Assembly (NCBI GenBank): GCA_963806185.1
Contig: CAWDXE010000001.1
Span: 640,001-704,000 of the forward strand
DNA from: an uncultured candidate division Zixibacteria bacterium
GTDB lineage: Bacteria > Zixibacteria > MSB-5A5 > GN15 > FEB-12
DNA length: 64,000 nt
Direction of reading: 5' to 3'
Shown here: positions 1,787-36,420 of the stretch, one piece after another
Layout of the letters: each line of letters starts with the position of its first letter
Numbering within the stretch: the stretch's first letter is position 1
Translations under genes and position numbers: made by a program
The notes under the pieces: generated by a model
Databases searched by the model: none
Told to the model about the DNA's origin: nothing
The model's input: only the letters and a program-made list of their open reading frames with translations

Positions 1787-1840
1787 TCAGGCTACGTTCC
1801 CCTCCATCCAGTTGCAGAACGCGTCTCGTAGACCCCGCCA
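1787..1840 (+). repeat. Junction repeat family A, copy A1 (att-like, tRNA-3'-like end)
   Basis: tcaggctacgttcccctccatccagttgcagaacgcgtctcgtagaccccgcca; minus strand reads WRGLRDAFCNWMEGNVA*. Confidence 0.85.
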
Positions 1841-2103
1841 GTATCCTAATGCGTAGTTAGACATACGCTTCCACTTATCCGGACTGTTAAATACACGGAA
1901 CTCAATCCATCGAAATTGAGTCGCATATTGCATGCGCGCACAAGAAGCACAACGGCTATCAAGCGAAGCTCGCTAAAGCCATTATTATCTATTCCACGAC
2001 TCGTCTGACGACATACCGATAGCCGAAAATTGCTCTAGGGCTGGCTAATGTTCTAAATTAACCTGATTGAACCGTTGACCGATGACGTGGAAGGAATTTT
2101 CAG

Positions 2104-3117
2104 ATGTCGGAATTCTCAGTAGCTGAGAAGCAGTTACTAATCGGGGTCAGGAGCATCGTGCTCAGAAGGGAGTCACCCGATAGATCTGCACTTGATGATT
2201 TCGGGAAGCGATTCTTCGATGATGATCTTGTGGATTGGACCGAAGCCTACGGAAGCCTCATAGCAAAGGGTTGTCTTCAATTCGACAACGGTCTCTACTC
2301 CTTATCGGACGAGGCTGCCAAGCTGGCGGCGGGATTTCGCAGAGAGAAGATGAGTTTCGGCTTCGATGAATGGATGATCAAATCCTGTGAGTGCAAAGCC
2401 TACTCGCGTTTCTGTGAACTTGTATATGGCATCGATCTCTGCCAGTGCAGCATGGTCGATCGGGAACAATTGGATAAACTCATGGAAGTACTTGATCTGA
2501 CTCCCGCCAACAGAGTGCTTGATCTCGGTTGCGGAGTGGGCAAAATCACCGAATACGTATCCGATAAGACAGGAGCGAATATCACGGGCGTGGATTTCGC
2601 AAAGGGTGTTATTGATCGAGCGAACGAGCGGACCGCAATGAAACGGGACCGATTGTCTTTCTGCGCCAGTGATATGAATGAGCTTGACTTCCCTGCCAAT
2701 TCGTTCGACACAATCATAGCGTTGGATACACTCTACTTTGTTGATGATCTCGATGAGACGATAGCGGCTATGAAGAAGATCCTTGGTGCAGCTGGGCAGA
2801 TGGGAGTGTTTTACAGCCAAATCATCAAGCCGGATGACTCAAGAGATCTTCTCGATGCGGATTCCACCCGGCTCGCAAAGGCCTTGCACAATAGCGGGCT
2901 TTCATACAGGACGTGGTGTTTCACGGACAGCGAGCATGAGATTTGGTGCAAGGAAAAGAGAATAGCTGAGGAATTGAAAGCCGACTTTGAGAGCGAGGGA
3001 TACTTGGATTTGTGCGAAAGCCGGGCCAAGGAGGCGGAGCAGCTGCTCGGAATAATCAAAGATGGTCGAGAAAGCCGACACCTTTACCACATAAAACTCG
3101 CTAACGTCGAGAACTAA
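2104..3117 (+). CDS. Class I SAM-dependent methyltransferase
   Basis: Motif I 'VLDLGCGVG', 'ITGVDF', 'FPANSFDTIIALDTLYF'; RBS-like ggaagga upstream. Confidence 0.85.
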   Translation: MSEFSVAEKQLLIGVRSIVLRRESPDRSALDDFGKRFFDDDLVDWTEAYGSLIAKGCLQFDNGLYSLSDEAAKLAAGFRREKMSFGFDEWMIKSCECKAYSRFCELVYGIDLCQCSMVDREQLDKLMEVLDLTPANRVLDLGCGVGKITEYVSDKTGANITGVDFAKGVIDRANERTAMKRDRLSFCASDMNELDFPANSFDTIIALDTLYFVDDLDETIAAMKKILGAAGQMGVFYSQIIKPDDSRDLLDADSTRLAKALHNSGLSYRTWCFTDSEHEIWCKEKRIAEELKADFESEGYLDLCESRAKEAEQLLGIIKDGRESRHLYHIKLANVEN

Positions 3118-3347
3118 ACTTGTACACATAAGCTCATCGGTTTATTCGTGGTCCATTTCCCTCCAAGGGGACAACGGACGTGCTCCTATGCTGACATGTT
3201 TCTTCTACCGCTTGTTGGTCGTCGTGCTTGGCGAATGGTGCGAGACTTCCAACTTCGGTTGGACCTACCGATTGTGCGTATGGCAGAGTAGGAGGCTAAA
3301 CGGAGGGCCCGTGGCAGTCCAGGGAAAGTGCAATCGGGGCTGCTCAG

Positions 3348-3401
3348 TCACGCCGGATACTCGATGACCCAGTTGCGGAACGCGTCTCGTAGACCCCGCC
3401 A
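3348..3401 (+). repeat. Junction repeat family A, copy A2
   Basis: tcacgccggatactcgatgacccagttgcggaacgcgtctcgtagaccccgcca; minus strand reads WRGLRDAFRNWVIEYPA*. Confidence 0.85.
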
Positions 3402-3723
3402 TTATCGTCGATCCATTTAAGCCATTGTAATCACCATTCATTCCTTACTATCGCCATCCATCTGTCTCTACTTTTGAGGCAACGCGAATCCCCAAGCAGT
3501 TCCTGCCATGCGACGGTTGTCAGCCGGCAAGGAACAATTACCAGCGGCGGTGAGAGACGAGATGTTCTGCTTTCTGGTTCTCGTTCAATTTTGATTGGAG
3601 ATTGTTGTGCATTACGGTCCCCTTCAACGTCCAGATATCCTGACAATACATTCCGGGCGCGCTCGTGGTGGGTGCCATGGCATCTCTTCACCGACGCGTC
3701 ATGTTTTCGTCACGGCTTCCGGC

Positions 3724-4977
3724 TTACGATTTGTCGAGGCTACGGATTTTCACATAGAGCGCAATCGCCAGTATGGTGATGAGAAGAGAAGAGATTCCGA
3801 GACCCCATCGGCGGAAATAGTATTCGCGGACAAGTGCTGCAGCGCCGGTTTGTACCGTTTTGGACTTTGCGAGGCCGTCAGTCGCATACGGAATCAAAGT
3901 GTCGAGGTTGAACGCATGGATAGACGACCGCATGTGAATCTCGACTTGGTCGGCATCCTTGAGGGCAAATTCGATATCGGTTACCATCATACCCCGCCTC
4001 GACGCTTCGTTGACCCTGGACCGCGATGAATCAATCGCGTTTGCCAGAGTCGCATAGAGTGTACTCATGCTGTCGATTTTTGCCGCCGCCGTTGTGCCAT
4101 CGCCGGCAGAGTGGCAGTTGCCGCAAAGTTGGCCGTCTCCCAGGCCTATGAGGGTCCTTGTCGGTGTGGTGATACCGTGATTGCTGTGGCACGTCTCGCA
4201 CATTGGCAAGCCCTGCGCCGCGAATGCCTCATAATGTGGTGATAACGCATACAGGTCGGCCTCGATCGCGTGACACATTCCACATACGGCCGATAAAGAA
4301 CTGGCCCCGGGTGGTGCTGCGCCGTGGTTCCCATGGCAATCGTTACAGACGGGCGCGCTCAGATCCATCTTCACGAATACTGCTTTGCCGTGAACTGATT
4401 TGCGGTAAAGCTCTTCCTGATCGGTAGGTATCCCGTATTCGGCCATGTAGTCGGCGTTGCTATGGCAGGCACCGCATGTAGAGGGAATGTTAGCCGGGTT
4501 CGTCGTCGAATAGGGCATGGCGGCGTCACCGATCTTGTGGGCCGTATGGCAGGAAACGCAGGTGGCCACCTTGGAATCGTTTTTCTGAAACAGCCGCTGG
4601 CCGTGAATCGAGGTCTTGTACTTGTCGAACTGATCAATCGGCAGTTTGGGGTTATGTTCGTGCATATAACGGGCGTCACCGTGGCAACGACTGCAAAACT
4701 CCGGTATTGCCGATCTTCCGGGCACACCCCGCCAGCCGGCGGAAGCTCGAACGGCGTCCATGTCATCCAGGGCGGGATTGCCGCCATGACAGTCGGAACA
4801 GTTCAGGCCTTTCTGGGCGTGGATATCGAGAGAGAAATCGTGCGCGGGTCCTTCGTCGCCTTCCAGCTCCAGGTGACAGATCACGCATTGACTCTGTCTG
4901 CTGCCCTGCGGCCAGACCGGTGCGGCCAGCGTGACGCAGAGAATTCCGCCCATGATGAAAAGCTTGCGGGACATCAT
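3724..4977 (-). CDS. Membrane-anchored multiheme (9 CxxCH) cytochrome c
   Basis: Signal peptide MMSRKLFIMGGILCVTLAAPVW; CVICH, CSDCH, CSRCH, CVSCH, CGACH, CNDCH, CGMCH, CETCH, CGNCH; C-terminal TM helix; ATGA overlap with the cytochrome b stop. Confidence 0.9.
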   Translation of the reverse strand: MMSRKLFIMGGILCVTLAAPVWPQGSRQSQCVICHLELEGDEGPAHDFSLDIHAQKGLNCSDCHGGNPALDDMDAVRASAGWRGVPGRSAIPEFCSRCHGDARYMHEHNPKLPIDQFDKYKTSIHGQRLFQKNDSKVATCVSCHTAHKIGDAAMPYSTTNPANIPSTCGACHSNADYMAEYGIPTDQEELYRKSVHGKAVFVKMDLSAPVCNDCHGNHGAAPPGASSLSAVCGMCHAIEADLYALSPHYEAFAAQGLPMCETCHSNHGITTPTRTLIGLGDGQLCGNCHSAGDGTTAAAKIDSMSTLYATLANAIDSSRSRVNEASRRGMMVTDIEFALKDADQVEIHMRSSIHAFNLDTLIPYATDGLAKSKTVQTGAAALVREYYFRRWGLGISSLLITILAIALYVKIRSLDKS

Positions 4978-35171: not shown

Positions 35172-35192
35172 TGGAAAAACAAGGGACACTGC

Positions 35193-36188
35193 ATGCAAAA
35201 GCGCAAACTGGGCAAGAGCGGCCTGGAGGTCTCAGCCCTTGGACTGGGCTGCATGGGTATGAGTTTCTCCTACGGTCCACCCAAAGACAAGAAGGAGATG
35301 ACCTCTCTTCTTCGGTCCGCCGTGGAACGGGGTGTCACATTCTTCGATACCGCGGAAGTATACGGCCCGTTCATCAATGAAGAACTCTTGGGAGAAGCCC
35401 TTGTTCCATTCCGTGGGAAAGTGGCGATCGCCACCAAGTTCGGGTTCAAACTGGATCCTGACGGCGGGCCGAAGTGGGTTGGCCTGGATAGTCGGCCAGA
35501 GCATATCAAGCAAGTGGCAGAGGCTTCGCTCACGCGGCTCAGGATCGACGCCATCGATCTGTTCTACCAACACCGTGTTGACCCGGATGTCCCGATTGAA
35601 GACGTTGCAGGAGCAGTTAAGGATCTGATTCGGGAAGGCAAGGTGAAGCACTTCGGCCTTTCCGAAGCGGGAGCAAAGACGATCCGTCGCGCACATACCG
35701 TGCAACCGGTCACCGCCCTCCAGAGCGAATACTCGCTGTGGACGAGAACCCCCGAAAAGGAAGTGATACCGACTCTCGAGGAACTCGGAATCGGTCTCGT
35801 TCCCTACAGCCCGCTGGGGAAGGGTTTCCTCACCGGCAAGATGGACGAGAAGACGACTTTCGACAGCTCCGACTTCCGTAGCAGTCTCCCTCGCTTCACA
35901 CCTGAGGCACTTAGAGCGAATCAAGCCCTGATCGATCTGTTCGGAACGATCGGTCAGAGGAAGAAGGCAACACCGGCTCAAATAGCGCTGGCGTGGCTCC
36001 TGGCCCAGAAGCCATGGATTGTTCCGATTCCGGGCACGACGAAGCTGAGCCGCCTGGAAGAAAACATCGGAGCCGCCGCAATCGAACTCACTTCCGAGGA
36101 TCTTCGTGAGATCGAAAGCACGACATCGAGAATCACTGTGCTGGGGGCCAGGTACCCGGAACACCTGGAGAAATTGACTGGTCGCTAG
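35193..36188 (+). CDS. Aldo/keto reductase
   Basis: 'LGLGCMGMS', 'FFDTAEVYG', 'IATKFG', '[10 protein letters not shown]', 'QSEYSLW', 'PIPGTTK'. Confidence 0.94.
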
Positions 36189-36203
36189 ACAAAACGTCGC
36201 TTT

Positions 36204-36235
36204 AGAGTCTGGGGGGACTGAGGTCGGGATCGCGT
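36204..36235 (+). repeat. Junction repeat family B, copy B3
   Basis: agagtctggggggactgaggtcgggatcgcg; aligns with B1/B2 (agtctgg....agtgaggtcggg) and is followed by a homolog of the A5 downstream flank. Confidence 0.68.
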
Positions 36236-36248
36236 TGATCAAAATTCC

Positions 36249-36280
36249 GCCCCTTTGAGGAGTATGTCGAAGGGGCTTTT
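36249..36280 (+). terminator. Rho-independent terminator (homolog of 16079..16109)
   Basis: gcccctttga-ggagtatg-tcgaaggggc followed by tttt. Confidence 0.72.
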
Positions 36281-36420
36281 GTATGTGGGACAAAGCGTTC
36301 CGCGCATTAAGGTCTAGTTCGAGAGTGACGTTGTAAGCATTTCGATCTTTTCTGATTCATGTTGAGCGAAGCACTAACCTTAGCGCTGTATTATTTCCGG
36401 GGATGAGCGTGAAATTGCTC

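Follow-up and report, generated by a model that had tools for sequence, protein, structure and literature searches.

Integrons are defined by the integrase IntI, the attI site and attC sites, the last being palindromic with RYYYAAC..GTTRRRY ends. Their cassettes are mostly promoterless, contain a single gene, are co-oriented and share a common promoter. The locus discussed here, in the genome of an uncultured Zixibacteria bacterium (G000; 82% complete), has some of this: a row of sites in one orientation parts small recombinase-free modules, and growth is at one end. In contrast to integrons, there is no IntI or attC, the enzyme is a serine recombinase, and the units have their own promoters and regulators, carry genes on either strand and reach 12.6 kb. 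A true integron was considered and rejected: the repeats are coding tails of a large serine recombinase (LSR) that end in CCGC, and IntI, attI and attC are missing. In what follows, the window is the whole stretch of 64,000 nucleotides analysed, and the repeats are called joints.

Islands of Dehalococcoides stand in tandem behind one tRNA-like gene, ssrA, with DsiB as recombinase (McMurdie et al. 2011, PMC3146451). The DsiB gene lies on the reverse strand, its 3' end overlaps attL, and only in the circular form may the gene be whole; 15 of the 31 islands have no integration module and are read as cis-mobilisable and accreted. Tandem units, a reverse-strand serine recombinase overlapping attL and module-less units recur here, the DsiB-type arrangement at the tRNA being seen in relatives and as a remnant in the window. 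The target, however, is tRNA-Asp and not ssrA, although one type-B-like tail stands some 2 kb behind tmRNA. The crossover appears to fall at the last four bases of the tRNA, as against the T-loop's middle, and a recombinase stands at 1 of 161 inner joints, as against a module in 16 of the 31 islands. Instead of the six-gene module of those islands (dsiB, dsiA, recF-like, parB, mom and an RNA-polymerase-domain protein), the helper elements here bring one gene like a tyrosine recombinase, one like QatC/QueC and two unknown ones, and, unlike in those islands, units are as short as 0.7 kb.

SCC elements target rlmH (orfX), and their ccr genes are not known to be divided by att sites. Here the target is tRNA-Asp and the enzyme is not a Ccr recombinase: the LSR reaches 78-79 bits against the CcrA/CcrB models, whose cut-offs are 700/900, and stays far below those of CcrA/B/C. 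ACME is mobilised by ccrAB of SCCmec, which excises alone and as a composite (PMC7029739). There, as here, an LSR-based stack of direct-repeat-bounded modules occupies one site; its ccr-less modules are moved by a neighbour's ccr and its head excises alone or with the composite, much as would be the case in the mechanism proposed below.

CIMEs have lost the integrase but kept their att sites; an incoming element accretes them and takes them along when it moves (PMC5704250). The cases described there, in streptococcal ICE/IME tandems, have mostly tyrosine integrases and a duplicated target-gene end. The window units have att sites at both ends and no integration or transfer genes, and, to judge by genome comparison, they may be mobilised with an adjacent element as CIMEs are. 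The five YKKPF-type helper elements scanned differ from the described cases in that no relaxase or mating genes were found in them. Tycheposons of Prochlorococcus are seeded at tRNAs, integrate serially and push older elements outward, leaving remnants (bioRxiv 10.1101/2020.12.28.424599). According to that preprint, 910 of 937 tycheposons have a tyrosine recombinase, partial tRNA copies act as separators, and many elements contain replication genes. The tRNA-seeded, outward-growing stack with remnants is thus common to both; the serine recombinase and the tails as joints are not. A literature search found no publication on the present family of joints and LSRs. Likely, the stack is a small-scale variant of these known stacked islands.

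The joints and the tRNA-Asp locus

A sequence-only reading of the window had seen nine same-strand intergenic repeats, taken them for displaced tRNA 3' ends and predicted a tRNA-Asp gene on the + strand to the left. That gene exists, at C1:631774-631848 (+; window -8226..-8152), 8.2 kb left of the window. The flank proved to be tRNA-Val, tRNA-Asp and then kdp, without the recombinase gene also looked for there; PF00589 has two matches in G000, on C4 and C7, neither close to the array. Unit 1 extends from tRNA-Asp to joint 1 (about 10 kb, recombinase-free); its right end in the window (1..1784, +) is the kdp operon with kdpD/kdpE, and kdpE indeed stops at 1784, directly before the first repeat at 1787.

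All nine repeats are real, on the + strand and between genes. Joint 1 (1787..1840) is a type-A tail reading antisense WRGLRDAFCNWMEGNVA and stop, with the probable crossover CCGC at 1835-1838; joint 2 (3348..3401), by antisense translation and profile, is type A with WRGLRDAFRNWVIEYPA and stop. Profiles also assign to type A the degenerate joint 3 (7456..7509), joint 4 (10028..10081; a 1-nt deletion close to the stop) and joint 7 (29457..29507; a 3-nt deletion). Joint 5 (16010..16063), type A by antisense translation, has an in-frame TGA because it matches the host tRNA-Asp 3' 16-mer exactly. Type B comprises joint 6 (16828..16890, antisense WRAQPHSVQTF..) and joint 8 (32894..32943, antisense WRPRPHFLQTF..), by profile and motif, and, by motif, the degenerate and truncated joint 9 (36204..36233). 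The degenerate joints, several in number, may be dead.

Two further + strand tails had been overlooked: a degenerate tRNA-Asn-type tail directly before joint 3 (7421..7452, antisense WLPRADV..), with a modest local score of 34, the highest of 300 random windows reaching 32, and probably a degenerate type-B tail directly before joint 2 (3300..3345), recognised by eye against G053 and G181 and not scored by profile. The roughly 55 nt that follow joint 5 look like the 3' end of an LSR gene, though to the eye alone; profiles gave no match. An inverted type-B-like half-site (29555..29578, -) lies some 53 nt inside the left end of the arsR-hgcAB unit; such half-sites occur 50-56 nt from the unit's left end at 11 of 152 sites.

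The window holds six type-A cores and three type-B motifs, where shuffles predict 0.11 and 0.00, and none of 100 shuffles attained either count. Profiles trained on genomes other than G000 recovered eight of the nine joints, missing the degenerate copy at 36204. Elsewhere in G000 their only matches are one behind tRNA-Asn and another some 2 kb behind tmRNA, so that the repeats are not scattered but confined to three tRNA- or tmRNA-adjacent places, in the orientation of the tRNA. An Rfam scan of the window gave no match. The NTATC said often to follow the repeats is present after four window copies, but 139 joints elsewhere show no conservation of it. Nor are the leftmost copies the most complete: profile scores from left to right are 43, 56, 27, 45, 57 and 39 bits, and the sole copy with a 16/16 match to the host tRNA is the fifth.

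Translated antisense, the joints yield one conserved peptide, the C-terminal tail of an LSR. Variability among 126 type-A tails is greatest at third codon positions (entropy 0.91/0.58/1.39, codons 10-15); between tails of matched units, pS is 0.24 and pN 0.13 (11 non-independent pairs), protein-level selection being weak. Among 120 proteins listed, whole LSRs end in tail A (P0011, P0021, P0069 and P0078) or in tail B (P0002 and P0004). LSRs of the relatives have the resolvase, recombinase and zinc-ribbon domains (PF00239, PF07508, PF13408) with Ser10 invariant; their gene lies at tRNA-Asp and runs in antisense into the 3' end of the tRNA, where it terminates at 6 of 30 LSR loci. G000 has no intact LSR. 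What it has is a 3'-end remnant of about 45-50 codons with two in-frame stops (36231..36382, -; DNA profile), the only LSR sequence found in this genome. The protein match at 36233-36367 has an E value of 1.4e-8, and 5.6e-11 in a second search. The earlier statement that no recombinase body follows any junction thus fails behind the repeat at 36204.

Sequence comparison narrows the crossover. Type-B tails (n = 52) are 19-27% identical to the tRNA before C71 and 96% identical at C71 (which is unfiltered, whereas the last three positions served as filter). Positions 66-69 read AGAC or AGAG in 78 of 105 type-A tails and in none of 37 tRNA sites. We infer a crossover at the last CCGC of the tRNA, C71-C74. 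Large serine recombinases in general cross over at 2 bp and are directional, pairing attP with attB and needing an RDF to excise. The repeats are therefore arms of the element itself, not duplicated tRNA, with which they share only the terminal CCGC. An RGTT motif precedes CCGC by 15 nt in tRNA sites (37), by 20 nt in type-B tails (39) and by 21 nt in type-A tails (99), and in the Asn tail it again lies 5 nt farther out than in tRNA-Asn. In serine integrases the outer motif stands 5 bp farther out in attP than in attB (PMC3783163), which the spacing here matches; the RGTT motif is presumably the zinc-ribbon site. To the right of the joints no conserved outer motif was found. In LSR-free joints the right arm is just as loose in profile as the flank of an LSR-free tRNA. 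The joints have an attR-like geometry of tail plus flank.

The units and their relatives

The module contents named in the first reading were confirmed by Pfam/NCBIfam. From left to right they are a methyltransferase unit (1841..3347, +; gene 2104-3117); Rieske, cytochrome b and multiheme cytochrome c (3402..7420, -); a Peptidase S74 (intramolecular chaperone) protein (7620..9410, -); an OMP with two SBBP beta-propeller genes (10209..15617, -); a cupin in a unit of 827 bp (16196..16543, -), whose right end with type-B tail has homologues in G023 and G169; a 12.6-kb unit of an FG-GAP gene, a TPR/transglutaminase/ATP-grasp operon and DUF3541 (17818..29327); arsR, a 198 aa ORF, dsbD-like, hgcA and an hgcB-like ferredoxin (29636..32775, +), with hgcA (31325-32482) above the NCBIfam cut-off; and AraC, Zn alcohol dehydrogenase and aldo/keto reductase (AKR; 33069..36188). 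The units thus measure 0.8-12.6 kb and contain operons and regulators, with genes on both strands. No recombinase or transfer genes were found in them among the window proteins scanned. The Rrf2-nos-norB-hemerythrin cluster that follows (36481..45740, +) is probably further cargo; no closing tail for it was found in the window, and homologous nos clusters in relatives are joint-bounded units oriented opposite to the array.

Arrays of this kind are common in the order: of its 159 other genomes, 52 have the strict type-A motif, against 4 of 125 outside it. Mapped arrays and block comparison agree with the expectation that unit content and order vary among relatives. The methyltransferase unit is joint-bounded in four of eight close homologues, the other four lacking bounding tails. 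Joints bound it, with no LSR inside, in G023 (94% nt identity), G053 (80%) and G181; its neighbours differ among the three arrays mapped, and its last tails differ between genomes. G022 and G125 share a nos unit of 9.6 kb at 92% identity, which extends from the left crossover up to the tail; outside it their DNA is unrelated. In 21 of 161 block pairs, some redundant, the homology stops at a joint in either partner alike. Bounding tails are absent at 7 of 8 AKR loci; a tail within 1.5 kb was found at none of nine AKR matches scanned, one genome having AKR in its array region.

Among joints with at least 300 bp downstream (161; 19 short ones dropped), one has a whole LSR behind it, four a partial one and 156 none; in an unbiased search, whole LSRs head 5 of 30 tRNA-Asp loci. 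Of 135 type-A tails, ten are stacked behind a type-B and five behind an Asn tail. About one fifth of the right arms fold as a hairpin, and a few left ends in relatives carry a REP-like palindrome.

Growth of the row

How did recombinase-free units come to stand in a row? The proposal of repeated integration at tRNA-Asp of units without their own recombinase is supported. With a probability of roughly 0.6, judged from sequence comparison, they were brought by LSR-bearing helpers that later excised. A circular element with attP inside its own LSR gene would recombine at the last bases of the tRNA (CCGC, C71-C74), which would leave the LSR body at the tRNA and a tail of about 17-30 codons at the far end. 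To the right of the crossover loose AT-richness would suffice, and therefore the tRNA followed by an LSR-free unit would again be a target, while the tRNA followed by an LSR body (attL) would be a poor one. A helper in front of an LSR-free unit could excise jointly with it, using the unit's tail; in a new host the composite would integrate, the helper would excise alone, and the unit would stay at the tRNA. Repeated rounds would push older units outward, and tail-closed units would come to stand in a row without any LSR in between. The first units would have arisen when a complete element lost its LSR, as the remnant at 36231-36382 may record. Integration before an LSR end does occur, however, as the whole LSR and some 5-9 remnants behind joints attest; avoidance of LSR bodies is therefore a bias, not a rule. 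Tail-on-tail stacks and differing last tails, moreover, need deletions, for which the shuttle alone is insufficient.

Alternatively, an LSR that is not strictly directional, whether it heads the array or lies somewhere else, might excise single LSR-free units between neighbouring joints as circles and reinsert these in trans, either at the tRNA or at inner joints. This we consider rather doubtful, although it would account for joint-bounded units as small as 0.66-1.5 kb, for one unit having different neighbours in different genera, and for a single head LSR with several LSR-free units in G020, G028 and G128. Perfect tRNA-flank duplications of 144-165 bp around LSR-free units of 1.1-1.4 kb (G012 and tRNA-Asn of G000) suggest recent insertion of units that have no LSR of their own, and TndX/TnpX-type LSRs work without a directionality factor (PMC5704250). 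Yet composite delivery predicts all of these too, and the duplications may be assembly artefacts. The joints are attR-like without a right outer motif, and canonical serine integrases, according to PMC3783163, do not pair such sites with attB; G000, at 82% completeness, moreover offers no LSR to act in trans. Single units may be mobilised in trans, but delivery in cis by a helper, as in SCC/ACME and CIMEs, accounts for the data equally. Of the cassette idea, the recombinase-free units stand; the displaced tRNA ends and the lack of any recombinase body do not.

Less probable still is plain decay in place of complete LSR islands, the joints being dead scars and the units moving only by ordinary homologous exchange of the region. 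The window remnant and those of 130-610 bp in relatives fit it, as do the degenerate or frameshifted joints 3, 4, 7 and 9, the deletion-like tail-on-tail stacks and an array devoid of transfer genes. Decay would not lead one to expect, however, an identical left end, starting at the crossover, on LSR-free homologues across families (G000/G053, 80%), nor block ends at joints in both partners; and a remnant-bearing 2.1-kb unit is itself common to two contigs at 80% identity. Dispersed REP- or terminator-like repeats, or chance, are practically refuted, the hairpins and palindromes notwithstanding, by the matches to the LSR C-terminus, the codon periodicity, the near-zero shuffle expectation and the confinement to tRNA- or tmRNA-adjacent places in tRNA orientation.

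Were the in-trans reading nevertheless to hold, for which we see a minor chance, Zixibacteria would possess a serine-recombinase counterpart of the integron: a tRNA-splitting LSR would cut out single circles and reinsert them at tRNA-Asp, a unit's tail would join the LSR and complete the enzyme's C-terminus, and kdp, nos and hgcAB modules would circulate between genera as a common cassette pool. The array marks the place where a large uncultured group chiefly gathers genes. What arrives there serves potassium uptake and N2O reduction or encodes cytochromes, and hgcAB (mercury methylation) is present in a second copy. This copy lies between two recombination joints and therefore offers a concrete, testable route of hgcAB transfer; none of 29 other hgcA loci scanned has such bounding tails. 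Since LSRs of this family appear to recombine at the outermost bases of a tRNA and would exchange their own C-terminus on integration, they also provide a simple system in which to assay the control of gene splitting and the accumulation of recombinase-free units.

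The array and its surroundings in the source genome

The array is a real feature of the Zixibacteria source genome (G000, with contigs C1 and C7), and the sequence-only reading, which had proposed an integron-like series of cassettes at a tRNA, was right in part. The window corresponds to C1:640001-704000. Six type-A and three type-B repeats (joints 1-9) lie between genes on the + strand from 1787 to 36204, exactly where that reading had placed them; chance would account for 0.11 and 0.00, respectively. Its annotations of the gene modules between the joints, here called units, could be upheld. 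Also, the tRNA-Asp suspected further left is there, together with a tRNA-Val (C1:631615-631848, same strand, 8.2 kb left of the window). Between this tRNA-Asp and joint 1 no recombinase was found; the interval is occupied by the kdp operon and a gene for a porin-like protein. Rfam and ARAGORN yielded no match in the window. Profiles trained on other genomes detected joints of G000 in the array (8/9) and at only two other places, one 1.3 kb beyond tRNA-Asn and the other some 2 kb beyond tmRNA.

The unit behind tRNA-Asn measures 1.4 kb (C1 ~491330-492735, or 11330-12735 of locus L002, minus strand). It is closed by a repeat, or tail, of Asp type stacked immediately upon one of Asn type, and the tRNA flank is duplicated over 165 bp on both sides in the assembled sequence. 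Its two small ORFs have no match in Pfam. In several units of 0.7-1.4 kb (loci L170, L210, L135 and L002) a shared left-end sequence ends in a REP-like palindrome just before the cargo. The type-B-like tail behind tmRNA (C1 972555-974629, L228) closes a unit with a homologue (56-57%) of the S74-protein gene at window 7620-9410.

Two further observations concern the window. The Rrf2-nos-norB cluster (36481-45740) is oriented opposite to homologous joint-bounded units of three other genomes (G020, G022 and G105), and a closing tail was not found for it. Several secreted proteins in the array and outside share a repeated domain at their C-termini, about 60 codons long, which we take to be dockerin-like (10840-11013, 13263-13436, 19593-19795, 27403-27629 and 50754-50956).

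The repeats as recombinase ends and the inferred site of crossover

Read on the minus strand from CCA, the type-A repeats encode a conserved peptide, e.g., WRGLRDAFRNWVIEYPA before the stop. Codon position 3 is the most variable one in 126 type-A tails. A search of 61 genomes with PF07508 retrieved large serine recombinases (LSRs). Of 30 loci examined, six have an LSR gene that runs antisense into tRNA-Asp and ends in KRG or KRGRRDSNSRPPA before the stop; other LSR genes likewise run into Asn, Leu, Glu, Met, His and Arg tRNAs. Among the 120 homologues listed, P0011 (MRALRDEFL), P0078 and P0069 (both WLGVRDAFRN-like) and P0021 end in a tail, and the type-B tail forms the C-terminus of P0002 and P0004 (RPQYHSPQTF). 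Close recombinase homologues are labelled Zixiibacteriota. By sequence, these tail-ended and tRNA-ended LSRs of relatives identify both repeat types as the C-terminus-coding end of an LSR gene with an internal attachment site. In the AlphaFold model of P0004 the body reaches a mean pLDDT of 85.7; tail residues 477-511, where few rows are aligned, stay below 50. A third tail type in relatives has a tRNA-like end, CAACCCCGC, with an in-frame stop (L046 ~11900-11960, L146, L212, L277) and often follows another tail directly.

That the repeats are displaced tRNA 3' ends, as originally proposed, does not hold. Type-B tails match the tRNA at positions 69-70 in 19-27% and at 71 in 96% (n=52). AGAC or AGAG occupies positions 66-69 in 78/105 type-A tails vs 0/37 tRNA sites, and only joint 5 matches the host tRNA 16/16. 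By these counts, the shared GTCTCGT is an arm encoded by the element and similar to the target. RGTT and CCGC are 15 nt apart in tRNA sites; the spacing grows to 20 nt for B tails and to 21 nt for A tails, and the motif of the Asn tail is shifted by 5 nt relative to tRNA-Asn. These shifts agree with the 5-bp shift between attP and attB of serine integrases described in PMC3783163. We infer a crossover somewhere inside C71-C74. A crossover in the T-loop with a displaced tRNA fragment had been suggested by a GATNA..TNATC symmetry about GT in some window copies. It was rejected because the AGAC/AGAG of the joints is absent from tRNA sites, identity between B tails and the tRNA is confined to CCGC, and NTATC shows no conservation outside the window.

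The right arms of LSR-free joints revealed no conserved outer binding motif; they show only CA, TT or AT along with a T and roughly eight AT-rich positions, and resemble LSR-free tRNA flanks. In 11/152 sites an inverted type-B-like half-site, whose motif also makes up the 3' end of another subtype of LSR (L072), lies to the right of the crossover at a distance of 50-56 nt (window 29555-29578; L007, L016, L020, L055, L098, L100, L155, L174, L176, L185). The DNA for the conserved YKKPF end of the LSR folds on the tRNA strand into a hairpin followed by T's (z < -2 in 14/16 arms), just right of tRNA-Asp in L087, L077, L076, L081 and L083 and at window 36250-36285; it may double as tRNA terminator.

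Distribution, helper elements and cargo

Among 285 genomes of the phylum, 57 carry the strict type-A pattern (52/159 others in the order, 4/125 outside it), and backward-pattern controls gave 0. The exact motif is present in a GN15 record, and a metagenome scan yielded 68 loci. One match in viral contigs was no true joint. In L005, a contig from a record titled Candidatus Acidoferrum sp., two type-A, one type-B and one Asn-type tail were seen; either the system extends to Acidobacteriota or the contig is mis-binned.

Arrays mapped behind tRNA-Asp have up to ten tails each. Those of G020, G028 and G128 bear one LSR at the head, the tRNA-Asp end; many have none (G053, G029, G023, G022, G060). 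Of 180 tails, 19 with less than 300 bp downstream were dropped. The remaining 161 are followed by no LSR (156), by a remnant of 125-210 bp (4) or by a whole gene (1), whereas, of 30 tRNA-Asp loci obtained by an unbiased pattern search, five have a whole LSR and three a partial one. A DNA profile detected LSR sequence after 6/164 tails; downstream of three more, the starts resemble a second LSR subtype.

In complete elements, the helpers, the LSR is followed by a conserved module: a divergent tyrosine-recombinase-like protein (365-369 aa), an unknown one of about 160 aa, a QatC/QueC-like one (609-646 aa) and an unknown one of about 260 aa (L218, L216, L209, L055, L041). Beyond this module they carry genes for defence: restriction-modification and type I-E CRISPR systems (CRISPR-Cas in the element of G011). 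Likeness to a transfer coupling protein was seen in 1 of 47 proteins scanned, which belongs to the other LSR subtype.

The hgcA of the window (within 31325-32775; 445 bits vs a cut-off of 275) sits inside the array with arsR and an hgcB-like ferredoxin. A second copy in G000 (C7:93950) is 69% identical to it. Matches occur in 49/285 genomes of the phylum; of the 51 other matches, 29 were scanned, and a joint within 1.5 kb was found at none of these.

How the array may have grown

Several units have boundaries that coincide with joints. Close homologues of the 1.56-kb methyltransferase unit occur in 8/285 genomes. In four (G000, G023, G053, G181) it has a tail on either side, two of these tails having been recognised by eye, and in one it lies directly behind tRNA-Ser; in the other three no tail was found. 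Homology to G053 (80%) begins at the left joint, that to G023 (94%) stops at the right crossover, and the neighbours differ. The 9.6-kb nos units of G022 and G125 are 92% identical between the left CCGC and the tail, and outside these limits the sequences are not homologous. A tail also follows kdpE in several other contigs, with differing right arms. Assembled sequence further shows perfect tRNA-flank duplications of 144 or 165 bp around LSR-free units of 1.1-1.4 kb (G012; tRNA-Asn of G000). Several findings complicate the simple picture: the last tail of the methyltransferase unit differs between genomes, 15/135 A tails are stacked immediately upon another one, most AKR loci and all of the 29 other hgcA loci scanned have no tail nearby, and the tails of matched units show weak selection (pS 0.24, pN 0.13; 11 non-independent pairs).

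Most likely, with a probability of about 0.6, the array was built by accretion with delivery by helpers. Starting from the att anatomy demonstrated here, the cycle, which we infer, would run thus. Units would begin as complete elements and then lose their LSR, as at 36231-36382. An LSR element would integrate readily at the tRNA only when no LSR end follows. It could excise jointly with a downstream LSR-free unit via the tail of the latter and, after arrival, excise alone; the unit would stay behind. We consider it less likely that single units are cut out and put in by an enzyme acting in trans, in the manner of an integron. Still less probable is that every joint is a dead scar.

The array of G000 is probably frozen, since an enzyme seems to be lacking: in this 82% complete genome, searches with PF07508 and PF00239 found no intact LSR, nor was the QatC-like helper gene found. 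The only match to the family profile is the LSR 3'-end remnant behind the last repeat (36231-36382; 45-50 codons, two stops), which contradicts the earlier statement that no recombinase body follows any junction. A presumed remnant right of joint 5 was a likeness seen only by eye; neither protein nor DNA profiles detected it, and it was discarded.

The array works like several known systems; by enzyme or target it is a member of none, and by the tests applied it does not qualify as an integron. McMurdie et al. 2011 (PMC3146451) describe tandem ssrA islands, 15/31 without module, with a reverse-strand serine recombinase that overlaps attL and is perhaps complete solely in the circular form; in SCCmec/ACME composites a ccr-less neighbour is moved by an LSR, the head excising alone or as composite (PMC7029739); CIME accretion is reviewed (PMC5704250), and tycheposons integrate serially at tRNAs (bioRxiv 2020.12.28.424599). 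We found no description of this LSR family in Zixibacteria, and genome-wide catalogues of LSRs or islands may include such enzymes or sites. As far as our searches reach, what is new is the crossover at the last bases of the tRNA, inner joints almost without LSRs, small units shared across genera, and hgcAB carried as cargo.
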